A DNA stretch of 64,000 bases. Source: Heterodontus francisci (lineage: Eukaryota). Below the pieces are notes generated by a model that worked only from the letters and a program-made list of their open reading frames with translations, had not been told where the DNA came from and did not search any database. Both the position numbers and the translations under genes were made by a program. Shown here piece by piece: positions 2,390 through 39,600 of this stretch. Position 1 is the stretch's first letter; each line of letters opens with the position of its first letter. The stretch covers positions 62,001 to 126,000 of the forward strand of contig NW_027141701.1 in assembly GCF_036365525.1 (NCBI RefSeq). The letters run 5' to 3'.

Positions 2390-3062
2390 TGAAAACAGTG
2401 ATTTGAGGTGAAAGGCTGTATTTCAGACTGGAGCATATTCGACAGTGGTGTTCCATTACAGTCAGTGTTAGATCTACTAATTGTTTTGATATATTATACA
2501 TATCAAGGGGAGAGCCAACTGTGCAACAGCCCCAACAAACAAATTTCTCTGCAGCACCTGTGGAAGAGTCACTCCAGAATTGGCCTTTATAGCCACTCCA
2601 GGCGCTGCTTCACAAACCACTGACCACCTCCAGGCGCGTATCCATTGTCTCTCGAGATAAGGAGGCCCAAAAGAGAAAGAAAAAGAAAGAATATTATACA
2701 TATAATTGACATGGATATTGGAATGCAGAGTAACATTTGAAAATGTGCTGGTGATATCAAACTTGAAGTTGTGATAAACAGTGAGGATGATACAAATCAA
2801 CTGCAACAGGACATTGATAGGCTAGCAGAGTGGGAAGATGAGTGCCAGATGGAATTTAATATAGAGCAGTGTGAATTGATACATTTTGGCAGAAGGGATA
2901 GGGAAAGGTAATATAGACTTAATGACACATTTCTAAAGCATGTGCAAGAACAGACGGACATGGGGATTCATGTGTATAGATCTTTGAAAGTGACAGGGCA
3001 TATTGAGCAGTAATTATCAACACCTCTGGGATTTTGGGCTTCATAAACAGAGGTATTGAGTG
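2390..3062 (+). mobile_element. Degenerate CR1 RT fragment
   Basis: 'SGVPLQSVLDLL' (decayed GVPQGSVLGP) and 'LQQDIDRLAEW...QMEFN' remnants. Confidence 0.75.
2503..2692 (+). mobile_element. RTE-clade LINE 3' fragment
   Basis: Closely matches 21402-21595 ('HSRIGLYSHSRRC', 'ccattgtctctcgaga', AAG/AAAG tail). Confidence 0.85.
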
Positions 3063-3063
3063 T

Positions 3064-4465: not shown

Positions 4466-4469
4466 CAGT

Positions 4470-5725: not shown

Positions 5726-5809
5726 AATAGCTTCAGTTACAAAGACAGGTTGTCAGAAATAAGGAAAAACAAGGTCCAGAAGATTTACAGAGTGGAGCAC
5801 ATTGCAGGT

Positions 5810-7822: not shown

Positions 7823-8232
7823 TTATTTTTTATTCATTCATGGGATGTGGGCATCGCTGGCCAGGCCAGCATTTATTGCCCATCCCTAATTACCCTTGAG
7901 AAGGTGGTGTGGTTGTGGCTTTCTTGAACTGCTGCAGTCAATGTGGGGTAGGTGCACCCACAGTGATGTTAGGCATTCCTTTTTATTGACTTCGTAGCGG
8001 TTAGATACAACTGAGTGACTTGCTAGGCCATTTCAGAGGCCATGTAAGAGTTAACCACATTGCTGTGGGTCTGGAGTCACATGTAGGCCAGACCAGGTAA
8101 GAACAGCAGATTTCATTCCCTAAAGGACATTAGTGACCCAGATGGGTTTTTACAACAATTGACAATGGTTTCATGGTCATCATTAGATTCCAGATTCAGA
8201 AATTAAATTCAAATTTCACCATCTGCTATGTA
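7823..8232 (-). mobile_element. Bipartite SINE-like derivative of the tRNA-headed LINE (head truncated)
   Basis: Central 'gggaa.gaaatctgc...ctggcctacatgtgactccagaccc' domain, a short piece of the LINE start, and tail 'gggcaataaatgctggcctggccagcgatgcccacatcccatgaatgaataaaaa'. Confidence 0.85.
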
Positions 8233-8244
8233 GGGAAGTAAAGA

Positions 8245-10275
8245 CAGGGCTCACCGCAGTCCCGCTCGGTCTTCAGGAGAAAAGCCTCCAGCATGTGTAC
8301 TCCTTCCGCCGCCAGTTATTTATGCAGCTGGTGTGGGAGGAGGTCACAGATGGCCATTTCAATGTAGAGTACCAGGGGAAGACCTACCGAATCTTCTGGT
8401 CCGTGGACGGGGTGCAGTGCCATGTCTGCAAGGGGGTGGGGAATGTTTGTAAGAAATGCCCCAACCTCCCGGCTACCAACTCCACCTCGGCGGCCCAGGG
8501 TGGCACCGCTGCACCTCCTCCCACTCCCCCTACACCTCCTAAAGATTCCGCTCAGTCGGTTCCAGATGCTGTGGTTTTCACGGCCTCCGGTGGGGTGGGG
8601 GGGCGGTGTGCCCGTCCGAGTGGAAGGAAGGCGTGGAGGAAAATTAAACACCGAGAAGTGCGTCCCCTGGACACCATGACACAACCCGAGCCTCGGCTCA
8701 GCTCAAGGCCCGCTCACGGGAAATCCACCTGCCCCAGGGCTGGGCTCAGGCCCAGGGTGACCAGGCAAAAGGAGGTTGTGGAGGCGAAGGCCCCTGATGA
8801 CGTGGAGGTCTCTGAGCCTCTGCACCCCAGTAGGAAAAAGAGGAGAAGGCACCCCTCAATGGAGGTAAATCAGGGCCCTGTGGAGCAGGGACCATCTGTT
8901 GGAGGGGAGCTGTCTCCTGGTTCAGGTCCCCAGGTTCCCCCTGCCACCACCACCATCAAGGCTGTAAAGCCTGGGCAGGAGCTCCCTGGCCCTCAGGATG
9001 GAGGGGAGGGGGAAGCTCCTGTACATGCAGCCCCTCCTGAAGGAGCAAGTGGAGCCCTGCTTGTGGTGGGGGAGCCTGGGGACGTCTCCCTTTCTGTCAC
9101 TGGGTCGGGTGTCCGGAATGGAGAGGAGGACAAGGCCCCAAAGGGTCGGCACTCCCAGCCGAAATCCACACTCAATCAGGACATGCCAGACCCAGTGATA
9201 GTTGAAAATGATGCCCCGTCTGCTGGGCCTGTGGACACAGGCAGGGCAGGAGATGACATCCTCTCTCCACCTCTGGTCTCGGCTCCGGCTGTATTTCTGG
9301 AGTCGGGAACTTCCGTCTCCCCTGGAACGCTCATTGGCCTGGGGACGGAGTGGAGGGGGGTCCTGAACCATTGGCGCCCAAAGGCTCCAGTGTCACAGTA
9401 GAACCCAGAGAGGACTCCTCCGCCATCGATCCTGGGGGTGGGATCGTGACAGAGGCGGAACCAGCTGGCTCAGCAGGATGTCCGTTCCACACTGTGTAAT
9501 GGGTGTGTCGGCCACTGGCGGTGACGACCCAGAGGAGGATAGGGACTCGATGTGGGGCACGGAGGACTATCTTGATTCCATCACCAGTGAGGTGATGGAG
9601 TCCCTCGTGCCTCCCACTGAGTCTCCTCTCATCCCCACAGCGAAACTCCGAGATTTTCTCGCAGCATGCAGGGGTTGCCGCAATAAAGTTAAGCTGGCCC
9701 TCGGCCGTTGGTTGAATCTGGCGCTATTCATCCGGTCTGTCCGTGCCACCCTCCAGAAAGTGGGGAAGGGCACGGGCATGAAACTGGTTGAGAGGCGCCG
9801 GTTTAAAGCGTTCCTCAATGGGTTGCAGGAGGAGTGGAGGGCCAGGTGCACTTCCACTGCCTCCTCACAGTGAGGTGTTGGTGATGGTTTTTAACTACCT
9901 TTGACATGAAGATAACCATAGCCAGCCTCAACATCAATGGCAGCAGGGGGTCTCACCGCAGATTTCACAATCTCTCAGTCCTCAGGGAAGGGAGATACGC
10001 AGTGAGCTTTCTGCAGGAAATCCACACCGTTCCGGGAGACGTAGCCACCTGGCCCCTGGAGTGGCAGGGTGGGGTCTGCATGAGTCACCTCACCCCTATT
10101 TCTAGTGGGGTGGCTATCTTGTTGGCCCCGACTTTTCAGCCAGGAATCTTGGGGGTCAAGGAGCTGGTGCTGGGCTGCTTGCTCCACCTCGCTGTTCGCC
10201 TGGGGAGTGTGCCGCTCCACTATGTGAAACTGTACGCGCCCAGGCCCGGAGCATTGCAAGTGCGCTTCTTTGAAC
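8245..10275 (+). mobile_element. Tx1 (L1-clade) LINE 5' part: ORF1 plus start of ORF2 endonuclease
   Basis: ORF1 'HVYSFRRQLFM' and decayed zinc knuckle 'CHVCKGVGNVCKKC'; ORF2 at 9906 'MKITIASLNING...FLQEIH...SGVAILL...YAP'. Confidence 0.9.
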
Positions 10276-11247
10276 ACTGTGATACCAACCCCTGGTCTAT
10301 CATCTCTCTGTGTTTATAAACACTGAGTGTACATCACCCTGTGTTCACACTGTGAGGCCTCCCCTGGTCGATCATCTCTCTGTGTTTGTAAACACTGAGT
10401 GCACATCACCCTGTGTTCACACTGTGAGGCCTCCCCTGGTCTATCATCTCTCTGTGTTTATAAACACTGAGTGCACATCACCCTGTGTTCACACTGTGAG
10501 GCCTCCCCTGGTCTATCATCTCTCTGTGTTTATAAACATTGAGTGTACATCACCCTGTGTTCGCACAGTGAGGCCTCCCCTGGTCGATCATCTCTCTGTG
10601 TTTGTAAACACTGAGTGCACATCACCCTGTGTTCGCACTGTGAGGCCTCCCCTGGTCTATCATCTCTCTGTGTTTGTAAACACTGAGTGCACATCACCCT
10701 GTGTTCGCACTGTGAGGCCTCCCCTGGTCGATCATCTCTCTGTGTTTGTAAACACTGAGTGCACATCACCCTGTGTTCGCACTGTGAGGCCTCCCCTGGT
10801 CTATCATCTCTCTGTGTTTATAAACACTGAGTGCACATCACCCTGTGTTCGCACTGTGAGGCCTCCCCTTGTCGATCATCTCTCTGTGTTTGTAAACACT
10901 GAGTGCACATCACCCTGTGTTCGCACTGTGAGGCCTCCCCTGGTCTATCATCTTTCTGCGTTTATAAACACTGAGTGTACATCACACAGTGTTCACACTG
11001 TGAGGCCACCCCTGGTCTATCATCTCTCTGTGTTTATAAACACGGAGTGTACATCACCCTGTGTTCACACTGTGAGGTCTCCCCTGGTCGATTATCTCTC
11101 TGTGTTTATAAACACTGAGTGTACATCACCCTGTGTTCACACTGTGAGGTCTCCCCTGGTCGATCATCTCTCTGTGTTTATAAACACTAAGTGTACATCA
11201 CCCTGTGTTCACACTGTGAGGTCTCCCCTGGTCGATCATCTCTCTGT
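10276..11247. repeat. 72-bp minisatellite, about 13.5 copies (diverged copies also at 11640-11841)
   Basis: Unit aaacactgagtgcacatcaccctgtgttcgcactgtgaggcctcccctggtctatcatctctctgtgtttat; 24-aa periodicity in ORF 10310..11353. Confidence 0.95.
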
Positions 11248-11633
11248 TTTTATTTATTTATATTTTTGTGGGATGTGGGTATCACTGACTAGACCAGCAT
11301 TTATTGTTGTTGTACTGAGTGTCTTGCTGGGCCATTTCATTGGGCATTTATAATTCAACCACATTGCGGTGGGTCTGGAGTCACATGTCAGCCAGACCGA
11401 GTAAGGACGGCAGATTTCCTTCTGTAAAGGACATTAGTGAACCAAATGGGTTTTTATAACAATCGATAATGGTTTCATGGTCACCATTAGACCAGCTTTT
11501 AATTCCAGATTTATAAATTGAATTTAAACTTCACCATCTGTCATGGTGGGATTCGAACCCCATGCCTCCAGAGCATTAGCCTGGTCTCTGGATTACTAGT
11601 CCAGTGACATAACCACTACACCACCACCTCCCT
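11248..11633 (-). mobile_element. Full tRNA-headed SINE of the same family as 7823-8232
   Basis: Minus strand: 'ggtggtggtgtagtggttatg...ggttcgaatccc' head, central domain, tail 'aataaatgctggtctagtcagtgatacccacatccc'. Confidence 0.85.
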
Positions 11634-17659: not shown

Positions 17660-18420
17660 CCCTTGAACTCTCGCTCCCTCTCCCACTCTCTTTATGCTCC
17701 GGCTCCAATCTCGTGTTTCCCACTCTCTGATTGAGCTCTCGTTCTCTCTCCCGGTCTCTTTCTGCTCCGGCTCCGCTCTCGCTGTTTCCCACTCGCTGAG
17801 TGAACTCTTGCTCTCTCTCCCGGTCTCTTTCTGATCCGGCTCTGCTCTCGCTGTTTCCCACTCGCCGAGTGAACTCTCACTCTCCCTCCCACTCTCTTTG
17901 TGCTCCGGCTCCACTCTCGTGTTTCCCACTCGCTGAGTGAACTCTCACTCTCTCTCCCGGTCTCTTTATGCTCCGGCTCCACTCTATCTGTTTCCTGCTC
18001 TCTGAGTGAACTCTTGCTCTCTCTCCCGGTCTCTTACTGCTCCGGCTCCGCTCTCGCTGTTTCCCACTCTCTGAGTGAACTCTCGCTCTCTCTCCCGGTC
18101 TCTTACTGCTCCGGCTCCGCTCTCGCTATTTCCCACTCTCTGAGTGAACTCTCGTTCTCTCTCCCGGTCTCTTTATGCTCCGGCTCCACTCTATCTGTTT
18201 CCTGCTCTCTGTGTGAACTCTCGCTCTCTCTCCCGGTCTCTTACTGCTCCGGCTCCGCTCTCGCTATTTCCCACTCTCTGAGTGAACTCTCGTTCTCTCT
18301 CCCGGTCTCTTTATGCTCCGGCTCCACTCTCGTGTTTCCCACTCTCTGAGTGAACTCTCGTTCTCTCTCCCGCTCTCTTTATTCTCCGGCTCCACTCTCG
18401 CTGTTTTCCGCTCTCTAAGC
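17660..18420. repeat. 69-bp minisatellite, about 11 copies
   Basis: Unit gtttcccactctctgagtgaactctcgctctctctcccggtctcttactgctccggctccgctctcgct; 23-aa periodicity. Confidence 0.95.
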
Positions 18421-19769: not shown

Positions 19770-21595
19770 AAGCACGAGCTGGACGAAAAGCCAACAAAAT
19801 CGGAACTCAGTGATGCCATTGATTCTCTAGCCAGTGGAAAAGCCCCTGGGAAGGACGGCATTACACCTGAAATAATCAAGAGTGCCAAGCCTGCTATACT
19901 TTCAGCACTCTACGAACTGCTTTGCCTGTGTTGGGATGAGGGAGCAGTACCACAGGACATGCGCAATGCCAACATCATCACCCTCTATTAGAACAAGGGT
20001 GACCGCGGTGACTGCAACAACTACCGTGGAATCTCCCTGCTCAGCATAGTGGGGAAGGTCTTCGCTCGAGTTGCTTTAAACAGACTCCAGAAGCTGTCTG
20101 AGCGCATCTACCCTGAGGCACAGTGTGGCTTTCGAGCAGAGAGATCTACCACTGACATGATGTTCTCCCTTCGCCAGCTGCAGGAGAAATGCCGTGAACA
20201 ACAGATGCCCCTCTACGTTGCTTTCATAGATCTCACCAAAGCCTTTGACCTCGTCAGCAGACGTGGTCTCTTCAGACTACTAGAAAAGATTGGATGTCCA
20301 CCAAAGCTACTAAGTATCATCACCTCATTCCATGACAATATGAAAGGCACAATTCAACACAGCAGCGCCTCATCAGACCCCTTTCCTATCCTGAGTGGCG
20401 TGAAACAGGGCTGTGTTTTCGCACTTACACTGTTTGGGATCTTCTTCTCCCTGCTGCTCTCACATGCATTCAAATCTTCAGAAGAAGGAATTTTCCTCCA
20501 CACAAGATCAGGTGGCAGGTTGTTCAACCTTGCCCGTCTAAGAGCGAAGACCAAAGTACGGAAAGTCCTCATCAGGGAACTCCTCTTTGCTGACGATGCT
20601 GCATTAACATCCCACAATGAAGTGTGTCTGCAGAGTCTCATCGACAGGATTACGGCTGCCTGCAACAAATTTGGCCTAAACATCAGCCTCAAGAAAATGA
20701 ACATCATGGGACAGGATGTCAGAAATGCTCCATCCATCAATATCGATGACCACGCTCTGGAAGTGGTTCAAGAGTTTACCTACCTAGGCTCAACTATCAC
20801 CAGTAACCTGTCTCTCGATGCAGAAATCAACAAGCGCATGGGAAAGGCTTCCACTGCTATGTCCAGACTGGCCAAGAGATTGTGGGAAAATGGCGCACTG
20901 ACATGGAACACAAAAGTCCGAGTGTATGAAGCCTGTGTCCTCAGTACCTTGCTCTACGGCAGCGAGGCCTGGACAACGTATGTCAGCCAAGAGCGACGTC
21001 TCAATTCATTCCATCTTCGCTGCCTCCAGAGTATCCTTGGCATCAGGTGGCAGGACCGTATCTCCAACACAGAAGTCCTCGAGACGGCCAACATGCCCAG
21101 CATATACACCCTACTGAGCCAGCGGCGCTTGAGATGGCTTGGCCATGTGAGCCACATGGAAGATGGCAGGATCCCCAAAGACACATTGTACAGCAAGCTC
21201 GCCACTGGTATCAGACCCGCCGGCCGTCCATGTCTCCGCTTTAAAGACGTCTCAAAACGCGACATGAAGTATTGTGACATTGATTACAAGTTGTGGGAGT
21301 CAGTTACCCGTGATCGCCAGAGCTGGCAGACAGCCATAAAGGCGGGGCTAAAGAGTGGCGAGTCGAAGAGACTTAGCAATTGGCAGGAAAAAAGAAAAAC
21401 GCAAGGGGAGAGCCAACTGTGCAACAGCCCCGACAACCAATTTTATCTGCAGCGCCTGTGGAAGAGTCTGTCACTCTAGAATTGGCCTTTATAGCCACAC
21501 CAGGCGTTGCTTCACAAACCACTGACCACCTCCAGGCACTTACCCATTGTCTCTCAAAACAAAGAGGCCAAATAAGAAAAAGAAGAAGAAGAGGG
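19770..21595 (+). mobile_element. RTE-clade (BovB-like) LINE, 5'-truncated, nearly intact RT
   Basis: 'GKAPGKDGI', 'NYRGISLLS', 'FIDLTKAFD', 'GVKQG', 'LFADD', 'YLGS', 'RLRWLGHV'; TAG at 19989-19991; frameshifted C-terminal 'CSACGRVCHSRIGLYSHTRRC'; (AAG)n tail. Confidence 0.95.
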
Positions 21596-21600
21596 ACCTC

Positions 21601-22211
21601 TGTATGATTTTTGTGTGTTTGTGCTGGATGTAACTCGCTTTTAACCAACCAGGTTCTTTCTCTGTATTCTTAAGTCAAGATAGTGAGTTCATTAAGCACA
21701 GCAAGGATTTGCAAACAATTCTAAACCAATGGCAGTAGTTAAACAGCAGAGTGCCCTCAGTTTGGCGTCCCGAGCTGTTGTGGTGAAGTCTTCTCTCTTG
21801 AGGTGTTCTGTTGACTGCAGGATGGTCTCTTCTCAAATCTGTGTGTGCTGATGTCTCTCAGCACCTTTCATTTATACCCGCACCCTGATCCTCCGACGGT
21901 TCCTTCATTCCATATTAGGTTACATTCCACCTGAACCCTTTCGATTGATCAGGTATGGCCTCACCTTTCATACATTGTCTCTGAAGATAGCTTGATGGCC
22001 TAAGTCATTGTCACACAATGGGGAATGTTTGCTATCCCCATCAACATTCCAGTCATGAATAGTCTCCGAACACCTTTACTTACATTTCCATCATGAGGCC
22101 GACAAGTCTATCAATTATTGTGACCCTGAGCCTGTCTTAATTGAAATGCAGTAAGGTACTTATCAAAACATCCTGCCTCATAGCAAAGTTACTTCTGCTA
22201 TTGTTGTTACA
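21601..22211 (-). mobile_element. Candidate 3' LTR of ERV-A
   Basis: Minus strand TGTAAC...CATACA termini; purine-rich tract (ggagagatggtggaaga) just upstream; TATAAA near 21871-21876; degenerate poly(A) signal near 21690; lies downstream of the env stop. Confidence 0.45.
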
Positions 22212-22530
22212 GTTAAACCGTCTTCCACCATCTCTCCAATACAGCGTACAAATATACATTTCACAGAACATGATTCCAAACATGAGGTCCATAACTTAAT
22301 TCTAATATAATACATTGATACATATACAAAGTATAACTATTCCTGAACATAACCACAATATCATTTCAAATTATTCTCCTTTAAAACTTAGCACCTCATG
22401 TGAATTGTATCAGGCCACAACTCGCACAGATTCATCCAACAGATTAAACATGGCAGTTAACCCCTTAGTTCCTACAGTGCCCACTGTGAGGGTAAAATAC
22501 CAGATGGCATTGATCCCTCATACATTACCC

Positions 22531-23520
22531 TTAAGTGGGGCATATTCTTTCATGGTCTCCTGTCTAATTCTCATTTTCTTTATCATCCCCATGATTTGTC
22601 TTAACGCACACACCAAAATCAGAATTATCGCCTATTGAATGATGACAAAGTCATGGGAAATAATCCTGATCCAAGGGGGTATTTCAATGTCACACCAGTG
22701 ACTCTCATCCCCTATCTCAGGGATTTCCTTTTTAATTTCCTCATTTTATTGTTGCAGGACATAAAAGTGTTTGTTGGATGTATTGAGTCTTTGCAATAGC
22801 TCAGTCAGATGTTCAGGAAAAGGGGGAATGCCATAAACAAATCTACTGACATATTGATATAACTGCTCCTTGAGGTCATCTTTAACAGTGATATTTATTT
22901 GCTGATTATTCCTTATACTGAATCGGACCTTGTTTACTATCTGAGCCCTTAGAGAGGGACTAAAACAAAATTCTCCCTTATTTATTTGACACATTAAACT
23001 GCCATATGTATACTCTGTGTGGGTAGTAACAACACAATAACTTCCCTCACCTTGGTAGACAGAGTGATTGGGAAACTCCTCTCCACTCACTATTTCCATT
23101 GTACAGTTGAGGGGGTCTTTGTTCCAGGTTAATCCACATGCTGGAGCAGAGTTTTCTACAATATCATATGGGCAAACAAAGGCATCCTCTGACTGGAGAC
23201 ACCCAGACAAGTCAGGGGCAACCCAGGTGGTTTTATTGACCAGGGAGATATAAATAGGTGGATTTTTGTATCTAACAATGTGATTCCTCATTATTATCTG
23301 TTCCTTAACAACTGTTGCAGTAATTCAAGATTCCCAAGATCAATACTTTATTCTTTTGCTGAAGCTTGTTAATTCTAAATGATTGTCCTGTTCTCAGTAC
23401 TTTTGTTTCAAGTAACAGATCAGGCATGGACTTGAATGATTCTCCAGCTCTCTCTTTACCATATCCATCATGTGGATCATTCCTAGCCCTTCAACTGTCT
23501 CTCTGAACTTTCATCTTACT
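22531..23520 (-). pseudogene. env: Retroviral env remnant (foamy/lokiretrovirus-like, paramyxovirus-F-like TM subunit)
   Basis: 181-aa open Cys-rich ectodomain (22746..23291) with N-glycosylation sequons; same frame continues through two stops into a helical segment, a Trp-containing membrane-proximal region and a hydrophobic anchor 'PPWIRIISHDFVIIQ*AIILILVCAL', then a basic tail ending at TAA 22531. Confidence 0.7.
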
Positions 23521-23777
23521 ACTTCTGCCCATTTCCAGTGTGTTTAATTCTATTCTAATTGTTTTAAAGTCAGTTACTCTATGGAATATGTGACAATGCC
23601 TTGACAATTTAAAACATGTTTCACTCTATTGGCCACGTTAAACATTCCCTGTGGAGTAGGTGAACCTGTCTGAGACCTGTTCTTCAGTGCATTGCATTGT
23701 GCATTCTGCATGTTAGTTTACTCGTAACACATCACATTTGCACACTTACACCAGTGTCCCAATATCATGTCACACAT

Positions 23778-24128
23778 GGGTGGCACAGTGGCGCAGTGGT
23801 TAGCACCACAGTCCAGCCTCACAGCTCCAGCGACCCGGGTTCAGTTCTGGGTACTGCCTGTGCGGAGTTTGCAAGTTCTCCTTGTGTCTGTGTGGGTTTC
23901 CGCCGGGTGCTCCGGTTTCTTCCCACAGCCAAAGACTTGCAGGTTGATTAGTAAATTGGCTATTGTAAATTGCCCCTTGTGTAGGTCGGTGGTAGGAGAA
24001 TGGTGGGGATGTGGTAGAGAATATAGGGTTAATGTAAGATTAGTATAAATGGGTGGTTGTTGGTCGGCACAGACTCGGTGTGCCCAAGGGCCTGTTTCAG
24101 TGCTGTATCTCTGAATAAATAAATAAAT
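23778..24128 (+). mobile_element. tRNA-derived V-SINE (HE1-like)
   Basis: A and B boxes, V-domain 'gtgtgggtttccgccgggtgctccggttt', (aaat)n tail. Confidence 0.92.
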
Positions 24129-25493
24129 TCCTGACTCTCTGGTGATCTTAACACAAGATGAAAAAGGGGAGGTGGTGGGAAGGTGTCTCGAGAGCCTTGT
24201 TCATCTCCCCCTGCATGGTCTGAATGCTTTGGCTAGTGGCCAGAATGTCAATCAGTTCTCTTAAAAAACAACGTAGGCAAGGACACAAATCTCCAAGGGA
24301 AAGCTATCAATTTATAATTCTTAACTACACTTTCCTAACTCTTACTGGAAAATTCTGGACTTCCTGGAAATTATGCACATTAATTTGACAGTTTGAATTC
24401 TGATTCTGCCATTTTTTTGTCCCTGACATTCCTTTATTAGCTCTCGCACCAGCCAGATTTTTATTTCGAATTCTCATTAATTATAATTCTCTTTTATTTC
24501 TGAGCCCTGGAGAACCTCGACAGTCCATTACCCACCTGTCTTTAAAACAGGCATCAGACAGACCCTTAATCACTATCTCACTGTCGTGGTAGCCCTCACC
24601 TACACAACACCTTACCCAGTAACAGTTTACCAGCAGGCATAAGTGTAGTTTATTTTTTGAAAATTAAAATTTTGTTTATCCCAATTTGTTTTATCAATTC
24701 CTATTTTAGAAATAATTATCCCCAGGCTTGGTGGTTTTAAATGGTGCTTTTATGTCAGACAAAAGTGCTTGCATGTGTTTAGAGGCGACCTTCACATTTC
24801 TTGTTCATTCTATGATTTCTTGCTGTTCTTGCTGTACCAGCATCACCTCTTTAACAAAAACAGAGAATCCATTTGGTTCTGGTTAGGATCCCAATGGGTT
24901 ATGATGTCGAATCATATTTGTTAATTTATCAACTTAAAATTTCATAATGCCCATATACTGCATATAAATCTTCAATGAACTAAAGGTTGTGCAGTGAGCT
25001 AAGCTGCTGGCGGAGGGGGTTAACTCTCTGCTGCTTTGAACAAAAACTCGCAGATGGACCCTTGATGTTATCATCACCCTCCTTTCAAAAAAAAAGAAAA
25101 TAACAAAGGCATTGCCATGTGCTTTGGCTAGTTTGAACTGGGTTTTTTTTCACAAAGTAAATACCTGAATTTTTCCTATGAGACTGTTCTTTTATTTCAA
25201 ACTCTTGTGATATCTTTTCTTTCCCCCTAAAACTTGCTCAGATTTCAGAACGTTATGCTCACTTTATTTGCTCCAACATTCCAAGCCCTCTCTTTTTTTA
25301 AATCTAGAAACAAATGCATTTGATGATTAGACAAACCAATTCAACCTGTTTTCTTCTGAACAAAGGCTTTTTAAACTTTTACTGAATTCCTTTTCACAAC
25401 TATTTCAGAGCAAGAACTCCAATGATTCCCAAAAAGAAACTTTTAACTTTTGTGAAAATGTCTCTAACCCAAGAACAACTCGACATTCATTAT

Positions 25494-25624
25494 CTGATGA
25501 AAGGTCACTGACCTGAAACCATGAACTCTGCTTCTCTCTCCATAGATGCTGCCAGACCTGCTGAGTATTTCCAGCACGTTCTGTTTTTATTTCAGATTTC
25601 CAGCATCCGCAGTATTTTGCTTTT
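25494..25624 (+). ncRNA. Penelope-terminal fragment with minimal hammerhead ribozyme core
   Basis: CTGATGA (25494-25500), stem II aggtc/act/gacct, GAAA (25515-25518), followed by 'gatgctgccagacctgctgagtatttccagc'. Confidence 0.6.
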
Positions 25625-26817
25625 ATTTATTATTAATCATAAACGCTTCAAACAACCCAAAATGCAATTTACACTGTCTAACATTAAAACCATCCCATTC
25701 TAACATGTGTGGATTTGTATCGGAATAAAATTCTCACGTTTTAATCATCATAACTAGAATGTCACTGTGAGCACCAATGAATTTCACAACTTAAAATGGT
25801 TTACTTTATTAATTCCCCATCCCTTTAGACTGCTTATAATTCTCATATTTAACACAAAGTGCCAAATCTATCGCAGATTGCGAGTTCTATGGATAATTAA
25901 AAAATAATTATTACAAATGCACACACACATGAAACAGACAATTTAAAACAAGTTGCACTCCAGACCAGAAAGGGTTAAACAGCTTTCAGTTCACTGCAGT
26001 GACGAGGACACACAAAAAACATTCAAACAAAAGAATCGCGCACAAACCCAAACTGAGAAAAGGTCTTTCATTCAGAAATTCGGAAGCTTCCTCTCACATA
26101 CACTGCAGCCACTCTGGGTCTTTTCAACTTTAATAACTTGAACCTACTTATCAACTAAACACAGAACAGAATAAACACATACTTTTCCTTTAAAAGGGAA
26201 AAGAAGAAAATAAATTACATCACTTGTCTTCTTTCTTCAGGTACCTTTTATAAATGCTGCAATAACTAAAGATTTAATTCCACAAACCAAAAGGAAGCAT
26301 TCAACATTAATAGCCCAAAAAGAAAATCACCCAGCAAACCTTTTGCAGCCTGTTAAGCAGGGCTTTCAGTCACAGGGAGATTCTTAAAGGGACAGAACAC
26401 GACAACTTCACATCTTCCGTTCTCCTTCATTTCAACAGAACTTATCCTTTTCTTGTTTAACCCAACATTGATACAAATGTATGCAGTACACACATTAAAC
26501 AAGCAATAACTTGAAAACAGCATGCAAAACTGGACTAAAGAGGGTTAATTAATCTACATTTCAGTGATACAGGACACTGAGCACACACACATACAGAATC
26601 ACACAGACAGGAGTTACTCTTGGTTTAAATGTCTCGACACAGGAGCTGAGCTGGATAGCTGAGCAGTGACAGTTTCAACTTGAACTTCTTATCACGACCA
26701 ATCCGGTCGCTCACACACCGTCCTAACCTTTACGGTGGGCTATCATCATTTCTTTTCCTTTTATCCATTCTTCCTCATGGGCAATCTATTTCAAGTTCCA
26801 AAATTCTCAATTCACAC

Positions 26818-27614
26818 TAAGTCCCCATTTCAACAGTGCCTATCTCATGGACCCAGGCTTGGAAATCACTTGGGCTCAGGGGCTGGGATCGGGAGTTAGT
26901 TCCTGTCTGCTGTCCCGCTTGATTTAAAATCTTCAAAACCACATTAACAGGAAGATTAGGGGGAGGAGATCCCACAGGTCTTCACCCAAGTGGTCCTTGG
27001 AGATTTTCTCCCTGAATGAACCCCACTCTACCTCTGAGGAATCAGCATATTCTGGATCATATAGGGGCTCTGTGTTGTGTTGTGTTTCTTTATAGGGTGA
27101 CAGCAGACACATGTGCTCGCTGTTTCCCCAACTTACTCTCTAACTTCCTGATTTTAAGATGGCACTGTCAGTGATCTGTCTCCCAGTGGGTCTGCTGAAG
27201 GGCTTCCCTCAGAGCACCACGTGAGTCTTCGAACTGCTGGCTGAGTTTTTTTATTCTCGCTTAGTATTTTCAAGGGACTGCATAGCACTCTCTGCCTGTA
27301 CAGCAGTCACACTCTGCTGCTGCATTACTGCTGATGTACTCACCAGCTGTTGCTGTAATGTATCAATCTGACCCCTTTGGTCCTGGACTAATTTGTCCTT
27401 TTTCTGGACTAACTGGTCATCAGTCTGTGCGCGATATGATGCCACGTAAGAGATAAGCTTGAAGGCTCGATCTACATTCAACTTCCTTTCATTAACCTGT
27501 TCCTGAATAAACTTAACTATATCCTCATTCTGCAAGCAGGACCTGTAAGACCTTTATTTTAACATTCTTATCCAGCTTGGCTTGAAAAGACTTCAACACG
27601 GGTTTGTCGGTCAT
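26818..27614 (-). pseudogene. gag: ERV-A gag remnant (coiled-coil N-terminus plus start of capsid)
   Basis: ATG at 27614; Q/E-rich heptad ORF 27251..27535 continuing after a frameshift as 'QQFEDSRGALREALQQTHWETDH*QCHLKIRKLESKL'; capsid-like 'PVNVVLKILNQAGQQ...QPLSPSDFQAWVHEIG' at about 26835-26955. Confidence 0.55.
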
Positions 27615-27654: not shown

Positions 27655-30600
27655 CAATGATCTCTCCCTCCGATTGCTCCCTCCAATCTCTCCTTTGAAT
27701 TTCACCCCTATCCTCCCTCTGATCTCTCCCTCCAATCTCACTCCAACCTCCCTCCAATCTCTCCCTCCAGTCTCCCCTAAACCTCCTTCGAATCTCTCCC
27801 TCCAGTCTCCCTCTAATCTCTCCCTTCGATCTGTCCCTGACCCCTTCCAAACTCTTCTTTGGATCACTCCCTGACCTGCCTCCCATCTCTCTCTCTGATC
27901 TCTCTGTGACCAGACCCTCCAATCTCTCCCTCTGATCTCTCTGTGACCAGACCCTCCAATCTCTCCCTCTGACCTCTCTGTGACCACACCCTCCAATCTC
28001 TCCCTCTGATTTCTCTATGACCACACCCTCCAATCTTTCCCTCTGATCTCTCTGTGACCAGACCCTCCAATCTCTCCCTCTGATCTCTCTGTGACCACAC
28101 CCTCCAATCTCTCCCTCTGATCTCTCTGTGACCACACCCTCCAATCTCTCTCTCTGATCTCTCTGTGACTACACCCTCCAATCTTTCCCTCTGATCTCTC
28201 TGTGACTACACCCTCCAATCTCTCCCTCTGATCTCTCTGTGACCACACCCTCCAATCTCTCCCTCTGATCTCTCTGTGACCACACCCTCCAATCTCTCCC
28301 TCTGATCTCTCTGTGACCACACCCTCCAATCTCTCCCTCTGATCTCTCTGTGACCACACCCTCCAATCTCTCCCTCTGATCTCTCTGTGACCACACCCAC
28401 CAATCTCTCTCTCTCATCTCTCTGTGACCACACCCTCCAATCTCTCCCTCTGATCTCTCTGTGACTACACCCTCCAATCTCTCTCTCTGACCTCTCTGTG
28501 ACCACACCCTCCAATCTCTCCCTCTGATCTCTCTGTGACCACACCCTCCAATCTCTCTCTCTGATCTCTCTGTGACCACTCCCTCCAATCTCTCCCTCTG
28601 ATCTCTCTGTGACCACACCCACCAATCTCTCTCTCTCATCTCTCTGTGACCACACCCTCCAATCTCTCCCTCTGATCTCTCTGTGACTACACCCTCCAAT
28701 CTCTCCCTCTGATCTCTCTGTGACCACACCCTCCCATCTCTCACTCTGATCTGTCTGTGACCAGACCCTCCAATCTCTCCCTCTGATCTCTCTGTGACCA
28801 CACCCTCCAATCTCTCCCTCTGATCTCTCTGTGACCACACCCTCCAATCTCTCCCTCTGAACTCTCTGTGACCACACCCACCAATCTCTCTCTCTCATCT
28901 CTCTGTGACCACACCCTCCCATCTCTCTCTCTGATTTCTCTGTGACCAGACCCTCCAATCTCTCCCTCTGATCTCTCTGTGACCAGACCCTCCAATCTTT
29001 CCCTCTGATCTCTCTGTGACCAGACCCTCCAATCTCTCCCTCTGATCTCTCTGTGACCACAGCCTCCAATCTCTCCCTCTGATCTCTCTGTGACCACACC
29101 CTCCAATCTCTCCCTCTGATCTCTCTGTGACCACACCCTCCAATCTCTCCCTCTGATCTCTCTGTGACCACAACCTCCAATCTCTCCCTCTGAGCTATCT
29201 GTGACCACACCCTCCAATCTCTCCCTCTGATCTCTCTGTGACCACACCCTCCAATCTCTCCCTCTGATCTCTCTGTGACATCCCACCAATCTCTCCCTCC
29301 GACCTCTCTGTGACCACACCCACCAATCTCTCCCTCTGATCTCTCTGTGACCACACCCACCAATCTCTCCCTCTGATCTCTCTGTGACCACACCCTCCAA
29401 TCTCTCTCTCTGACCTCTCTGTGACCACACCCTCCAATGTCTCCCTCTGATCTCTCTGTGACCACACCCTCCAATCTCTCTGATCTCTCTGTGACCACAC
29501 CCTCCAATCTCTCCCTCTGAGCTCTCTGTGCCACACCCTCCAATCTTTCCCTCTGATCTCTCTGTGACCACACCCTCCAATCTCTCCCTCTGATCTCTCT
29601 GTGACCACAGCCTCCAATCTCTCCCTCTGATCTCTCTGTGACCACAGCCTCCAATCTCTCCCTCTGATCTCTCTGTGACATCCCACCAATCTCTCCCTCT
29701 GACCTCTCTGTGACCACACCCTCCAATCTCTCCCTCTGATCTCTCTGTGACCACACCCTCCAATCTCTCCCTCTGAGCTCTCTGTGCCACACCCCCCAAT
29801 CCTTCCCTCTGATCTCTCTGTGACCACACCCTCCAATCTCTCTCTCTGATCTCTCTGTGACCACACCCTCCAATCTCTCACTCTGACCTCTCTGTGACCA
29901 CACCCTCCAAGCACTCTCTCAGATCTCTCTGTGACCACACCCTCCAATCTCTCTCTGATCTCTCTGTGACCACACCCTCCAATCTCTCACTCTGATCTCT
30001 CTGTGACCACACCCTCCAATCACTCTCTCAGATCTCTCTGTGACCACACCCTCCAATCTCTCACTCTGATCTCTCTGTGACCACACCCTCCAATCTCTCT
30101 CTCTGATCTCTCTGTGCCACACCCTCCAATCTCTCTCTCTGATCTCTCTGTGCCACACCCTCCAATCTCTTCCTCTGATCTCTCTGTGACTACACCCTCC
30201 AATCTTTCCCTCTGATCTCTCTGTGACCACACACTCCAATCTCTCCCTCTGATCTCTCTGTGACCACACCCACCAATCTCTCCCTCTGATCTCTCTGTGA
30301 CCACACCCTCCAATCTCTCCCTCTGATCTCTCTGTGACCACACCCTCCAATCTCTCTCTCTGATCTCTATGTGACCACACCCTCCAATCACTCTCTCTGA
30401 TCTCTCTGTGACCACACCCTCCAATCTTTCCCTCTGATCTCTCTGTGACCACACCCACCAATCACTCTCTCTGATCTCTCTGTGACCACACCCTCCAATC
30501 TCTCCCTCTGAGCTCTCTGTGACCACACTCTCCAATCTCTCCCTCTGAGCTCTCTGTGACCACACTCTCCAATCTCTCCCTCTGATCTCTCAGTGACCAC

Positions 30601-33600
30601 ACCCTCCAATCTCTCCCTCTGAGCTCTCTGTGACCACACTCTCCAATCTCTCCCTCTGATCTCTCAGTGACCACACCCACCAATCTCTCCCTCTGATCTC
30701 TCAGTGACCACACCCACCAATCTCTCCCTCTGATCTCTCGGTGACCACACCCTGCAATCACTCTCTCTGATCTCTCTGTGACCACACCCTCCAATCCCTC
30801 CCTCTGATCTCTCAGTGACCACACCCACCAATCTCTCCCTCTGATCTCTCGGTGACCACACTCTCCAATCTCTCTCTCTGATCTCTCTGTGACCACACAC
30901 TCCAATCTTTCCCTCTGATCTCTCTGTGACCACACTCTCCAATCTCTCCCTCTGAGCTCTCTGTGACCACACTCTCCAATCTCTCCCTCTGATCTCTCAG
31001 TGACCACACCCTCCAATCTCTCCCTCTGAGCTCTCTGTGACCACACTCTCCAATCTCTCCCTCTGATCTCTCAGTGACCACACCCACCAATCTCTCCCTC
31101 TGATCTCTCAGTGACCACACCCACCAATCTCTCCCTCTGATCTCTCGGTGACCACACCCTGCAATCACTCTCTCTGATCTCTCTGTGACCACACCCTCCA
31201 ATCCCTCCCTCTGATCTCTCAGTGACCACACCCACCAATCTCTCCCTCTGATCTCTCGGTGACCACACTCTCCAATCTCTCTCTCTGATCTCTCTGTGAC
31301 CACACACTCCAATCTTTCCCTCTGATCTCTCTGTGACCACACCCTCCAATCTCTCTCTCTGATCTCTCTGTGACCACACCCTCCAATCTCTCCCTCTGAT
31401 CTCTCTGTGACATCCCACCAATCTCTCCCTCTGACCTCTCTGTGACCACACACTCCAATCTTTCCCTCTGATCTCTCTGTGACCACACCCTCCAATCTCT
31501 CCCTCTGATCTCTCTGTGAACACACCCTCCAATCTCTCCCTCTGATCTCTCTGTGAACACACCCTCCAATCTCTCCCTCTGATCTCTCTGTGACCACACC
31601 CTCCAATCTCTCTCTCTGATCTCTCTGTGACCACACCCTCCAATCTCTCCCTCTGATCTCTCTGTGACCACACCCACCAATCTCTCTCTCTCATCTCTCT
31701 GTGACCACACCCTCCAATCTCTCCCTCTGATCTCTCTGTGACCAGACCCTCCAATCTCTCCCTCTGATCTCTCTGTGACCACACCCTCCAATCTCTCCCT
31801 CTGATCTCTCTGTGACCACACCCTCCCATCTCTCTCTCTGATCTGTCTGTGACCAGATCCTCCAATCTCTCCCTCTGATCTCTCTGTGACCACACCCACC
31901 AATCTCTCCCTCTGATCTCTCTGTGACCACACCCACCAATCTCTCTCTCTCATCTCTCTGTGACCACACCCTCCCATCTCTCTCTCTGATCTCTCTGTGA
32001 CCACACCCTCCAATCTCTCCCTCTGATCTCTCTGTGACCACACCCACCAATCACTCTCTCTGATATCTCTGTGACCACACCCTCCCATCTCTCTCTCTGA
32101 TTTCTCTGTGACCAGACCCTCCAATCTCTCCCTCTGATCTCTCTGTGACCAGACCCTCCAATCTTTCCCTCTGATCTCTCTGTGACCAGACCCTCCAATC
32201 TCTCCCTCTGATCTCTCTGTGACCACAGCCTCCAATCTCTCCCTCTGATCTCTCTGTGACCACACCCTCCAATCTCTCCCTCTGAGCACTCTGTGACCAC
32301 ACTCTCCAATCTCTCCCTCTGATCTCTCTGTGACCACAACCTCCAATCTCTCTGATCTCTCTGTGACCACACCCTCCAATCTCTCGCTCTGAGCTCTCTG
32401 TGCCACACCCTCCACTCTTTCCCTCTGATCTCTCTGTGACCACACCCTCCAATCTCTCCCTCTGATCTCTCTGTGAACACAGCCTCCAATCTCTCCCTCT
32501 GATCTCTCTGTGACCACAGCCTCCAATCTCTCCCTCTGATCTCTCTGTGACATCCCACCAATCTCTCCCTCTGACCTCTCTGTGACCACACCCTCCAATC
32601 TCTCCCTCTGTTCTCTCTGTGACCACACCCTCCAATCTCTCCCTCTGAGCTCTCTGTGCCACAACTTCCAATCTTTCCCTCTGATCTCTCTGTGACATCC
32701 CACCAATCTCTCCCTCTGACCTCTCTGTGACCACACCCTCCAATCTCTCCTTCTGATCTCTCTGTGACCACACCCTCCAATCTCTCCCTCTGATCTCTCT
32801 GTGACCACAACCTCCAATCTCTCCCTCTGAGCTCTCTGTGACCACTCCCTCCAATCTCTCCCTCTGATCTCTCTGTGACCACACCCTCCAATCTCTCCCT
32901 CTGATCTCTCTGTGACATCCCACCAATCTCTCCCTCTGACCTCTCTGTGACCACACCCTCCAATCTCTCCCTCTGATCTCTCTGTGACCACACCCTCCAA
33001 TCTCTCCCTCTGACCTCTCTGTGACCACACCCTCCAATCTCTCCCTCTGATCTCTCTGTGACCACACCCTCCAATCTCTCCCTCTGATCTCTCTGTGACC
33101 ACACCCACCAATCTCTCCCTCTGATCTCTCTGTGACCACATCCTCCAATCTCTCTCTCTCTGATCTCTCTGTGACCACACCCACCAATCTTTCCCTCTGA
33201 TCTCTCTGTGACCACACCCTCCAATCTCTCCCTCTGATCTCTCTGTGACCACACCCTCCAATCTCTCCCTCTGATCTCTCTGTGACCACACCCACCAATC
33301 ACTCTCTCTGATATCTCTGTGACCACACCCACCAATCTCTCTCTCTCATCTCTCTGTGACCACACCCTCCCATCTCTCTCTCTGATTTCTCTGTGACCAC
33401 ACCCGCCAATCTTTCCCTCTGATCTCTCTGTGACCACACCCTCCAATCTCTCTCTCTGATCTCTCTGTGACCACACCCTCCAATCTTTCCCTCTGATATC
33501 TCTGTGACCACACCCTCCAATCTCTCCCTCTGATCTCTCTGTGACCACACCCTCCAATCTCTCCCTCTGATCTCTCTGTGACCACACCCACCAATCACTC

Positions 33601-36600
33601 TCTCTGATATCTCTGTGACCACACCCACCAATCTCTCTCTCTCATCTCTCTCTGACCACACCCTCCAATCTCTCTCTCTGATCTCTCTGTGACCACACCC
33701 GCCAATCTCTCCCTCTGAGCTCTCTGTACCACACCCTCCAATCTCTCTCTCTGATCTCTCTGTGACCACAGCCTCCAATCTCTCCCTCTGATCTCTCTGT
33801 GACCACACCCTCCAATCTCGCCCTCTGATCTCTCTGTGACCACACCCACCAATCTCTCCCTCTGATCTCTCTGTGACCACACCCTCCAATCTCTCCCTCT
33901 GATCTCTCTGTGACCACACCCACCAATCACTCTCTCTGATATCTCTGTGACCACACCCACCAATCTCTCTCTCTCATCTCTCTGTGACCACACCCTCCCA
34001 TCTCTCTCTCTGATTTCTCTGTGACCAGACCCTCCAATCTCTCCGTCTGATCTCTCTGTGACCAGACCCTCCAATCTTTCCCTCTGATCTCTCTGTGACC
34101 AGACCCTGCAATCTCTCCCTCTGATCTCTCTGTGACCACAGCCTCCAATCTCTCCCTCTGATCTCTCTGTGACCACACCCTCCAATCTCTCCCTCTGAGC
34201 ACTCTGTGACCACACCCTCCAATCTCTCCCTCTGATCTCTCTGTGACCACAACCTCCAATCTCTCTGATCTCTCTGTGACCACACCCTCCAATCTCTCGC
34301 TCTGAGCTCTCTGTGCCACACCCTCCACTCTTTCCCTCTGATCTCTCTGTGACCACACCCTCCAATCTCTCCCTCTGATCTCTCTGTGACCACAGCCTCC
34401 AATCTCTCCCTCTGATCTCTCTGTGACCACAGCCTCCAATCTCTCCCTCTGATCTCTCTGTGACATCCCACCAATCTCTCCCTCTGACCTCTCTGTGACC
34501 ACACCCTCCAATCTCTCCCTCTGATCTCTCTGTGACCACACCCTCCAATCTCTCCCTCTGAGCTCTCTGTGCCACACCCCCCAATCTTTCCCTCTGATCT
34601 CTCTGTGACATCCCACCAATCTCTCCCTCTGACCTCTCTGTGACCACACCCTCCAATCTCTCCCTCTGATCTCTCTGTGACCACACCCTCCAATCTCTCC
34701 CTCTGATCTCTGTGTGACCACAACCTCCAATCTCTCCCTCTGAGCTCTCTGTGACCACACCCTCCAATCTCTCCCTCTGATCTCTCTGTGACCACAGCCT
34801 CCAATCTCTCCCTCTGATCTCTCTGTGACATCCCACCAATCTCTCCCTCTGACCTCTCTGTGACCACACCCTCCAATCTCTCCCTCTGATCTCTCTGTGA
34901 CCACACCCTCCAATCTCTCCCTCTGAGCTCTCTGTGCCACACCCCCCAATCTTTCCCTCTGATCTCTCTGTGACATCCCACCAATCTCTCCCTCTGACCT
35001 CTCTGTGACCACACCCTCCAATCTCTCCCTCTGATCTCTCTGTGACCACACCCTCCAATCTCTCCCTCTGATCTCTGTGTGACCACAACCTCCAATCTCT
35101 CCCTCTGAGCTCTCTGTGACCACACCCTCCAATCTCTCCCTCTGATCTCTCTGTGACCACACCCTCCAATCTCTCCCTCTGATCTCTCTGTGACATCCCA
35201 CCAATCTCTCCCTCTGACCTCTCTGTGACCACACCCTCCAATCTCTCCCTCTGATCTCTCTGTGACCACACCCTCCAATCTCTCCCTCTGAGCTCTCTGT
35301 GACCACACCCTACAATCTCTCCCTCTGATCTCTCTGTGACCACACCCACCAATCTCTCCCTCTGATCTCTCTGTGACCACACCCTCCAATCTCTCCCTCT
35401 GATCTCTCTGTGACCACACCCACCAATCTCTCCCTCTGATCTCTCTGTGACCACACCCACCAATCTCTCCCTCTGATCTCTCTGTGACCACACCCTCCAA
35501 TCTCTCTCTCTGACCTCTCTGTGACCACACCCTCCAATCTCTCCCTCTGATCTCTCTGTGACCACACCCTCCAATCTCTCTGATCTCTCTGTGACCACAC
35601 CCTCCAATCTCTCCCTCTGAGCTCTCTGTGCCACACCCTCCAATCTTTCCCTCTGATCTCTCTGTGACCACACCCTCCAATCTCTCCCTCTGATCTCTCT
35701 GTGACCACAGCCTCCAATCTCTCCCTCTGATCTCTCTGTGACATCCCACCAATCTCTCCCTCTGACCTCTCTGTGACCGCACCCTCCAATCTCTCCCTCT
35801 GATCTCTCTGTGACCACACCCTCCAATCTCTCCCTCTGAGCTCTCTGTGCCACACCGCCCAATCTTTCCCTCTGATCTCTCTGTAACCACACCCTCCAAT
35901 CTCTCTCTCTGATCTCTCTGTGACCACACCCTCCAATCTCTCACTTTGACCTCTCTGTGACCACACCCTCCAATCACTCTCTCAGATCTCTCTGTGTCCA
36001 CACCCTCCAATCTCTCTCTCTGATCTCTCTGTGACCACACCCTCCAATCTCTCACTCTGATCTCTCTGTGACCACACCCTCCAATCACTCTCTCAGATCT
36101 CTCTGTGACCACACCCTCCAATCTCTCTCTCTGATCTCTCTGTGACCACACCCTCCAATCTCTCTCTCTGATCTCTCTGTGACCACACCCGCCAATCTCT
36201 CCCTCTGAGCTCTCTGTACCACACCCTCCAATCTCTCTCTCTGATCTCTCTGTGACCACACCCTCCAATCTTTCCCTCTGATCTCTCTGTGACCACACCC
36301 TCCAATCTCTCCCTCTGATCTCTCTGTGACCACACCCACCAATCTCTCCCTCTGATCTCTCTGTGACCACACCCTCCAATCTCTCCCTCTGATCTCTCTG
36401 TGACCACACCCTCCAATCTCTCTCTCTGATCTCTCTGTGACCACACCCTCCAATCACTCTCTCTGATCTCTCTGTGACCACACCCTCCAATCTTTCCCTC
36501 TGATCTCTCTGTGAGCACACCCACCAATCTCTCCCTCTGATCTCTCAGTGACCACCCCCTCCAATCTCTCCCTCTGAGCTCTCTGTGACCACACCCTCCA

Positions 36601-39600
36601 ATCTCTCCCTCTGAGCTCTCTGTGACCACACCCTCCAATCTCTCTCTCTGATCTCTCTGTGACCACACCCTCCAATCCCTCCCTCTGATCTCTCAGTGAC
36701 CACACCCACCAATCTCTCCCTCTGATCTCTCGGTGACCACACTCTCCAATCTCTCTCTCTGATCTCTCTGTGACCACACGCTCCAATCTCTCTCTCTGAT
36801 CTCTCTGTGACCACACCCACCAATCTCTCCCTCTGAGCTCTCTGTGACCACACCCTCCAATCACTGTCTCTGATCTCTCTGTGACCACACACTCCAATCT
36901 TTCCCTCTGATCTCTCTGTGACCACACACTAGAATCTCTCTCTCTGATCTCTCTGTGACCACACCCTCCAATCTCTCCCTCTGATCTCTCAGTGACCACA
37001 CCCACCAATCTCTCCCTCTGATCTCTCTGTGACCACACCCTCCAATCTCTCTGATCTCTCTGTGACCACACCCTCCAATCTCTCCCTCTGAGCTCTCTGT
37101 GCCACACCCTCCAATCTTTCCCTCTGATCTCTCTGTGACCACACCCTCCAATCTCTCCCTCTGATCTCTCTGTGACCACAGCCTCCAATCTCTCCCTCTG
37201 ATCTCTCTGTGACATCCCACCAATCTCTCCCTCTGACCTCTCTGTGACCACACCCTCCAATCTCTCCCTCTGATCTCTCTGTGACCACACCCTCCAATCT
37301 CTCCCTCTGAGCTCTCTGTGCCTCACCCCCCAATCTTTCCCTCTGATCTCTCTGTAACCACACCCTCCAATCTCTCTCTCTGATCTCTCTGTGACCACAC
37401 CCCCCAATCTTTCCCTCTGATCTCTCTGTGACCACACCCTCCAATCACTCTCTCAGATCTCTCTGTGTCCACACCCTCCAATCTCTCTCTCTGATCTCTC
37501 TGTGACCACACCCTCCAATCTCTCACTCTGATCTCTCTGTGACCACACCCTCCAATCACTCTCTCAGATCTCTCTGTGACCACACCCTCCAATCTCTCTC
37601 TCTGATCTCTCTGTGACCACACCCTCCAATCTCTCTCTCTGATCTCTCTGTGACCACACCCGCCAATCTCTCCCTCTGAGCTCTCTGTACCACACCCTCC
37701 AATCTCTCCCTCTGATCTCTCTGTGACCACACCCTCCAATCTCTCCCTCTGAGCTCTCTGTGACCACTCCCTCCAATCTCTCCCTCTGATCTCTCTGTGA
37801 CCACACCCACCAATCTCTCCCTCTGATCTCTCTGTGACCACACCCTCCAATCTCTCCCTCTGATCTCTCTTTGACCACACCCACCAATCTCTCCCTCTGA
37901 TCTCTCTGTGACCACACCCACCAATCTCTCCCTCTGATCTCTCTGTGACCACACCCTCCAATCTCTCTCTCTGACCTCTCTGTGACCACACCCTCCAATC
38001 TCTCCCTCTGATCTCTCTGTGACCACACCCTCCAATCTCTCTGATCTCTCTGTGACCACACCCTCCAATCTCTCCCTCTGAGCTCTCTGTGCCACACCCT
38101 CCAATCTTTCCCTCTGATCTCTCTGTGACCACACCCTCCAATCTCTCCCTCTGATCTCTCTGTGACCACAGCCTCCAATCTCTCCCTCTGATCTCTCTGT
38201 GACCACAGCCTCCAATCTCTCCCTCTGATCTCTCTGTGACATCCCACCAATCTCTCCCTCTGACCTCTCTGTGACCGCACCCTCCAATCTCTCCCTCTGA
38301 TCTCTCTGTGACCACACCCTCCAATCTCTCCCTCTGAGCTCTCTGTGCCACACCCCCCAATCTTTCCCTCTGATCTCTCTGTAACCACACCCTCCAATCT
38401 CTCTCTCTGATCTCTCTGTGACCACACCCTCCAATCTCTCACTCTGACCTCTCTGTGACCACACCCTCCAATCACTCTCTCAGATCTCTCTGTGTCCACA
38501 CCCTCCAATCTCTCTCTCTGATCTCTCTGTGACCACACCCTCCAATCTCTCACTCTGATCTCTCTGTGACCACACCCTCCAATCACTCTCTCAGATCTCT
38601 CTGTGACCACACCCTCCAATCTCTCTCTCTGATCTCTCTGTGACCACACCCTCCAATCTCTCTCTCTGATCTCTCTGTGACCACACCCGCCAATCTCTCC
38701 CTCTGAGCTCTCTGTACCACACCCTCCAATCTCTCTCTCTGATCTCTCTGTGACCACACCCTCCAATCTTTCCCTCTGATCTCTCTGTGACCACACCCTC
38801 CAATCTCTCCCTCTGATCTCTCTGTGACCACACCCACCAATCTCTCCCTCTGATCTCTCTGTGACCACACCCTCCAATCTCTCCCTCTGATCTCTCTGTG
38901 ACCACACCCTCCAATCTCTCTCTCTGATCTCTCTGTGACCACACCCTCCAATCTTTCCCTCTGATCTCTCTGTGACCACACCCACCAATCTCTCCCTCTG
39001 ATCTCTCAGTGACCACACCCTCCAATCTCTCCCTCTGAGCTCTCTGTGACCACACCCTCCAATCTCTCCCTCTGAGCTCTCTGTGACCACACCCTCCAAT
39101 CTCTCTCTCTGATCTCTCTGTGACCACACCCTCCAATCCCTCCCTCTGATCTCTCAGTAACCACACCCACCAATCTCTCCCTCTGATCTCTCGGTGACCA
39201 CACTCTCCAATCTCTCTCTCTGATCTCTCTGTGACCACACGCTCCAATCTCTCTCTCTGATCTCTCTGTGACCACACCCACCAATCTCTCCCTCTGAGCT
39301 CTCTGTGACCACACCCTCCAATCACTCTCTCTGATCTCTCTGTGACCACACACTCTAATCTTTCCCTCTGATCTCTCTGTGACCACACACTAGAATCTCT
39401 CTCTCTGATCTCTCTGTGACCACACCCTCCAATCTCTCCCTCTGATCTCTCAGTGACCACACCCACCAATCCCTCCCTCTGATCTCTCTGTGACCACACC
39501 CTCCAATCTCTCTCTCTGATCTCTCTGTGACCACACCCTCCAATCTCTCCCTCTGAGCTCTCTGTGCCACACCCTCCAATCTTTCCCTCTGATCTCTCTG

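Follow-up and report, generated by a model that had tools for sequence, protein, structure and literature searches.

The window analysed here, a stretch of 64,000 nucleotides from one contig of Heterodontus francisci, contains a polymerase-less provirus that retains the start of gag, the tail of env and one LTR. Its features are as follows:

21598..22480, minus strand: 3' LTR, approximate limits; similarity to dispersed copies stops at 21598-21601
22518..23321, minus strand: env tail of predicted F type, the C-terminal ~265 codons, with two internal stops
23322..23779, minus strand: expected site of the N-terminal half of env, with its cleavage site, fusion peptide and first helix; the family profile recognises nothing here
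23780..24130, plus strand: SINE-like insertion, present in the near-identical duplicates L079, L080 and L084 and missing from 7 older copies
24131..26819, minus strand: subfamily-specific internal region without pol, part of it common to dispersed pol-less copies
near 25493-25630: second short repeat, within the internal region 24131..26819
26819..27614, minus strand: 5' gag remnant with a predicted coiled coil, open from 27550 to 27254

Between the gag remnant and the env tail lies a 3.5-kb stretch with no pol. The gag remnant is 70-80% identical to pol-bearing copies, a similarity that stops at 26819. The 5' LTRs of dispersed copies align to window positions 21601-22483; the window itself holds no second (5') LTR, and L079, L080 and L084 retain a 71% remnant of one. 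A LINE reverse-transcriptase frame of 495 codons (19992-21479, plus strand) adjoins the LTR, minisatellites with units of 72 and 69 bases occupy 10145-11380 and 17664-18419, and three satellite arrays with units of 37, 33 and 55 bases fill 27879-41986, 42839-55832 and 56562-61396; a similar array also follows the provirus in the three duplicates. Pfam finds no host gene in window positions 1-10000.

The first-pass annotation had described a retroviral Env at 22531..23291, with a distinctive cysteine pattern followed by a helix, a Trp-containing region, a transmembrane segment (TM) and a tail. This Env is real: a single minus-strand frame, uninterrupted from 23321 to 22749 (191 amino acids), carries all of the motifs that were quoted. 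The frame extends a little beyond the limits first given: 23291 is an internal ATG in a frame open from 23321, and the terminal TGA (22520-22518) lies 11 bases past 22531. Beyond 22749 the frame meets stops with first bases at 22748 and 22634, one before and one within the hydrophobic TM segment (22649-22593, mean hydropathy 2.33). The tail is ordered as a cysteine-rich head, the equivalent of paramyxovirus F domains I/II, then a predicted C-terminal helix, a Trp-rich membrane-proximal stretch, the TM and a terminal tail. Its uninterrupted part contains seven cysteines, and the frame has five N-glycosylation sequons. The reported lack of gamma-type motifs also holds: CX6CC is absent from the window frame, and whole Envs of the family that were scanned gave no Pfam match to a gamma-type immunosuppressive domain, the position of which would fall in the unrecognisable first half of the window env.

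The frame is not a product of chance, because the genome yields 158 matches to the window protein at E<=0.001 and a profile made without the window's own subfamily gives it 235 bits. Used alone, the same protein matches nothing in Pfam and nothing among PDB sequences, and a word-index search with it returned none of 1176 candidates. The family profiles A1 and A3 likewise retrieve no fusion protein among PDB sequences, and features of P0002 tilt to Baculo_F at scores below threshold.

Recognisable env sequence is limited to the last ~265 codons. The DNA at 23322..23779 is common to subfamily copies at 77-84% identity, and a profile made from the first half of env gets no more than -0.2 bits from the window or any of 9 subfamily copies, against 96-136 bits for 3 positive controls. 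Neither the basic cleavage site nor the fusion peptide has a recognisable counterpart in these ten sequences; what resembles a fusion peptide and a helix by eye, at the expected distances, is faint and not significant. Sister lineages have a whole env with a visible basic cleavage site followed by a hydrophobic stretch.

Copies, age and selection

The best 46 of the 158 genome matches are 92-100% identical to the window protein; all but the one in the window itself map to C29 (54.6-63.7 Mb) or to small contigs. Identity among dispersed relatives goes as low as 33%. Over 6-7 kb, L079, L080 and L084 are 98.5-98.7% identical to the window and, because this identity extends into the flanks, they are segmental duplicates, not new insertions. 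In independent insertions, which lie on different contigs, similarity stops at the LTR edge. Two other C29 loci (L081, L083) are mosaics, with 93% identity to the window in LTR and env and only ~75% upstream, which suggests conversion or recombination of two old insertions inside the duplicated block.

The subfamily was sampled at 20 loci picked by their gag frame, 8 of which were extended. Seven (L089, L090, L091, L092, L096, L098 and L100) have all or part of pol, and their env consists of the last ~130 codons or less, in most cases broken near 22899. The pol-less layout of the window recurs in L085, L086 and L101 as well as in L040 and L081, and dispersed pol-less copies (L024, L026, L039, L040, L085, L086 and L101) share part of the internal region. 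The remaining sampled loci are incomplete or come from more distant lineages (L103, L104), and none of the subfamily loci examined has both pol and the longer env tail. Across a wider set of 40 loci, many have gag-pol in front of an env of this family. Pfam zf-CCHC (the knuckle is seen in L089 and L060), RVP, RVT_1, RT_RNaseH, RNase_H and rve are present in subfamily copies, and the pol of copies that share LTR and gag with the window comprises PR, RT, tether, RNase H and IN. We envision a history in which deleted derivatives were copied by the enzymes of pol-bearing relatives, and in which the window insertion would have decayed, gained its SINE and then multiplied by segmental duplication. 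The LTRs of four subfamily copies are 0.11-0.17 apart, and the short remnant in L080 gives 0.34; the former range bounds their age only loosely, at 25-39 My if the mammalian rate applies and tenfold that with the shark rate that PMC4422223 assumes.

The window copy is an ordinary dead insertion that lacks pol and a recognisable first half of env and carries a SINE, and it likely has no function today. One observation sits awkwardly with this: dN/dS of the env tail lies below a neutral control in four of seven pairs (<=2 of 200), at 0.41-0.45 against neutral medians of 0.75-0.80, with one further pair borderline (12 of 200) and two neutral, a poor fit with an env that lacks its first half. The low values could mean that the truncated tail still worked as a membrane protein once its front end had been replaced, serving either the pol-less element or the host, and the same frame is indeed open ~90 codons farther upstream in L040 and partly so in L024, L031 and L086, with at least 46 near-identical places in the genome. 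However, all seven pairs include one common sequence and are not independent, the near-identical duplicates give dN/dS of 0.25-1.75 from few changes, the window frame is stopped before and within the TM, and the selection may stem from the era of the replicating virus. We consider retention of a working protein very unlikely and favor the dead insertion.

L060 (C30:48392000-48401999) and L047 (C2:188276700-188286699) are 83% identical over 5.2 kb of gag-pol and have no DNA alignment in env. The env of L047 belongs to the family described here; that of L060, also F-like, is distinct (7 bits to A1). Shark ERV lineages have likely swapped env here.

Predicted fold and hosts of the Env family

The structure model of the window env (pLDDT 75.8, pTM 0.41) was compared with the PDB by Foldseek. 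Among the best 35 matches listed, 34 are paramyxo- or pneumovirus F proteins and one is a foamy Env; the best E value is 6.3e-3, and no PDB match reaches E<=0.001. The resemblance to foamy Env TM and paramyxovirus F1 that had been proposed by eye is thereby borne out at the level of the model, whose top matches are F and foamy Env (best E 0.006), and class I fusion proteins rather than host proteins head the search that the first-pass annotation had suggested. In the VIA comparison the top row is postfusion foamy Env (Z 5.6, rmsd 4.9 over 121 residues), and Langya F scores Z 5.1; a Z of 5.6 is middling, unrelated Ig folds reach 4.7, and foamy Env and F proteins lie within 1 Z of each other. 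Near the top of the BFVD matches are HPIV3 F, foamy Env (rank 3) and walleye retrovirus Envs. The latter, from walleye dermal sarcoma and epidermal hyperplasia viruses, are weak matches (E 0.017 and 0.024), hinting that epsilonretrovirus Env may also be F-like.

Intact relatives give a clearer signal. P0125, a homologue of 739 amino acids from Chiloscyllium punctatum that HHalign assigns to the shark profile at 100%, has 254 structural matches at E<=0.001, among them hPIV3 F at E 3.9e-10. The relative L021 has a weak direct match to PF00523 (E 0.04), and P0164 and P0168, Loki-type proteins reached by profile, match it at E 1e-6 to 5e-6; the Env of bona fide Loki loci shares 66-67% identity with P0168. 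Altogether, the window env is predicted to encode a class I fusogen of paramyxovirus-F type. The family shares its predicted fold with the paramyxo- and pneumovirus F proteins of PF00523 and differs from them in being retroviral, in whole Envs with an extra N-terminal domain and in an identity of 10-18%. From the fold, we infer that Env was fusion-active: in the replicating virus it would have been cut at the basic site, and the cleaved protein would refold into a helical bundle and fuse membranes, as F does.

A 21-row shark profile finds 65 matches among 1.84 billion proteins. Among the 21 of these that were looked up, those with a named host come from Pristiophorus, Chiloscyllium, Mustelus, Scyliorhinus, Heterodontus and Heptranchias, and from Pelodytes, Xenopus, Mantella, Latimeria and cyprinids; the family is present in further sharks, in frogs and in coelacanth. 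Uninterrupted Envs annotated as unknown proteins include P0125, P0133 (Pelodytes, 723 aa) and P0175 (Mantella, 677 aa, 16 cluster members), all candidates for recent insertion or host co-option. P0138 and P0140 join an env of this family to cadherin or F-box domains; these database proteins are probably gene-model artefacts and possibly cases of exonisation. SnRV-like ERVs of a cartilaginous fish are already in print (PMC4422223). In the literature searched, which was mostly outside subscription papers, we found no description of SnRV-like or shark ERVs with an F-type Env or one like that of Loki.

Placement by reverse transcriptase

The window has no RT and is placed through relatives that share its LTR and gag. 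Pieces shorter than 140-160 columns, frame-mixed HSPs of low identity (L034, L044, L050) and redundant rows were excluded; alpha, beta, delta and lenti RTs, which score far lower in the PDB comparison, are not among the rows of the tree. Loki is represented by L105 and L107 only; three of five candidate loci were dropped as unrelated prokaryotic matches. The RT phylogeny that the first-pass annotation had proposed puts the window's family inside Retroviridae and outside the gamma/epsilon clade, the foamy clade and Loki. L105 and L107 are sister to the clade that holds the family (100/98 and 97/96), exogenous foamy RTs join a shark foamy-Env family to its exclusion (100/99), and the RT of the window's own subfamily pairs with a Xenopus tropicalis Pol (98/96). 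Deep nodes are weakly supported, with no supported clade of the family with SnRV, and within the family the env tree conflicts with the RT tree. None of five forced groupings is rejected by AU tests: window subfamily with Loki, p 0.17 (Loki groupings 0.17-0.24); with foamy, p 0.26 (0.26-0.28); family with SnRV, p 0.44, at the smallest likelihood cost. The earlier assignment to a foamy-like or Loki-like lineage is therefore not supported by the tree, although the AU test rejects neither placement.

The nearest named virus by RT identity is SnRV (44-49%); for L060 the values are SnRV 49%, Loki 39-40%, foamy 35-41% and MLV 38%. SnRV and the SnRV-like ERVs (clade Huo, PMC6001957, and CmiERV lineage I of the elephant shark, PMC4422223) also share RT motifs with the family, and SnRV Env has, by a weak profile match, an F-type layout. 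They differ in forming no supported clade with it, in an Env that HHalign relates to the shark profile at only 3% and in a distant integrase (35%). Because the RT of relatives sharing LTR and gag falls inside Retroviridae and outside Loki and foamy, the best filing is likely as a class III, SnRV-related ERV.

RT neighbours that come from Loki hosts and are named NYNRIN-like point to Loki at first sight; the published RT alignment and real Loki loci overturn this. The idea that the window element is a lokiretrovirus, which would extend that group to cartilaginous fish, draws on the best Env match of the family and an integrase 45% identical to Loki IN (both below), and on the dual RNase H of relatives. 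The tether and second RNase H in pol-bearing relatives are undiagnostic for Loki, because they are common to all retroviruses. Against a Loki identity stand the position of L105 and L107 outside the supported clade that holds the family and the RT motifs, PQG/QYVDD in the relatives vs PFG/IYVDD in Loki; in the supplement alignment of PMC9040795, the Loki RT signature is distinct from that of the family and P0015 matches snakehead retrovirus. In this genome the best match to Loki RT is 41% identical (144 scored of 28,273 candidates), and the Loki RT motif has no exact match. This agrees with PMC7947760, where at least 3 chondrichthyan genomes were screened and none appears among the Loki hosts. 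The Loki identity is largely refuted, and we give it little credence.

A foamy-like endogenous retrovirus is still harder to credit. Foamy viruses are not known to have a CCHC knuckle in Gag or a protease of RVP type, whereas relatives of the window have both a CCHC knuckle and an RVP-type protease. No PF03408 match was found on the window or on the family Env pieces scanned, and the shark family that joins foamy RTs in the tree is a separate one in the same genome that does match PF03408. That true foamy-type family (L061-L078, 47 genome places) reaches 144 bits. What speaks for foamy is its place at the top of the VIA rows and at BFVD rank 3, an HHalign probability to foamy Env of 39% (E 3e-4), a foamy RT as the top PDB match (215 vs 194 bits for MLV) and the AU values above. 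With foamy Env and the shark foamy-like ERVs (PMC11468914) the family shares the structural subclass of class I fusogen, the cysteine-rich TM head being alignable; it differs in Gag, protease and RT, and its whole Envs (P0125, P0133, P0141) are ~720-750 aa long vs a foamy frame of 994 aa in L134. We are confident, short of certainty, in the overall reading: a stop-broken env C-terminus in a pol-less provirus, encoding a predicted F-type class I fusogen, from a lineage that is likely class III and SnRV-like, not foamy or Loki.

Integrase and Env compared with lokiretroviruses

The shark-only env profile aligns to Loki Env at an HHalign probability of 96% (E 2.7e-9) over 319 columns, and HMMER gives Loki Env 38.7 bits with this profile, none of 300 shuffles exceeding 3.0. 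SnRV and foamy Env score within their own shuffles; SnRV Env has a weak match of 20.7 bits to A2, a broader profile that contains Loki-type rows. Other features shared with lokiretroviruses (PMC7947760) are the dual RNase H and related integrase, and, as in BHIKHARI (10.1101/2024.03.25.586437), a coiled-coil Gag start and pol-less derivatives; Loki differs in RT clade and motifs, is not reported from sharks and was not found in this one.

Integrase identity of the family is 45% to Loki vs 33-39% to SnRV, foamy and MLV. In a tree that has no CGIN1 row, Loki IN joins frog and coelacanth members of the family (95/95), falling to 88/87 with fewer rows. An AU test on IN rejects the family as one clade without Loki (p 0.035), which could reflect the family's own paraphyly, and does not reject Loki outside (p 0.47); the Env tree with outgroups has no resolution and carries long-branch warnings. 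We raise, as a rather doubtful possibility, that the 'virus X' of PMC7947760 was this class III lineage, which occurs in sharks, frogs and coelacanth, and that Loki took an integrase-plus-env 3' block from it by recombination. The nesting of Loki IN, the rejected IN clade and the alignable Env support this scenario; the drop in IN support, the p of 0.47 and the unresolved Env tree weaken it, and shared inheritance with slow change explains the IN and Env data as well. If the 'virus X' scenario were true, F-type Env would be old equipment of retroviruses proper.

By sequence alignment, the Env of this family is a bridge between Loki and canonical retroviruses. PMC7947760 lays out four scenarios for the origin of retroviral Env, given no significant overall similarity between Loki Env and its retroviral counterparts. 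The lineage described here is placed inside Retroviridae, and its Env aligns to Loki Env over ~320 columns and has a predicted F fold; an independent origin of all retroviral Env therefore becomes less likely. Common descent and transfer become testable against each other through trees of integrase and Env.
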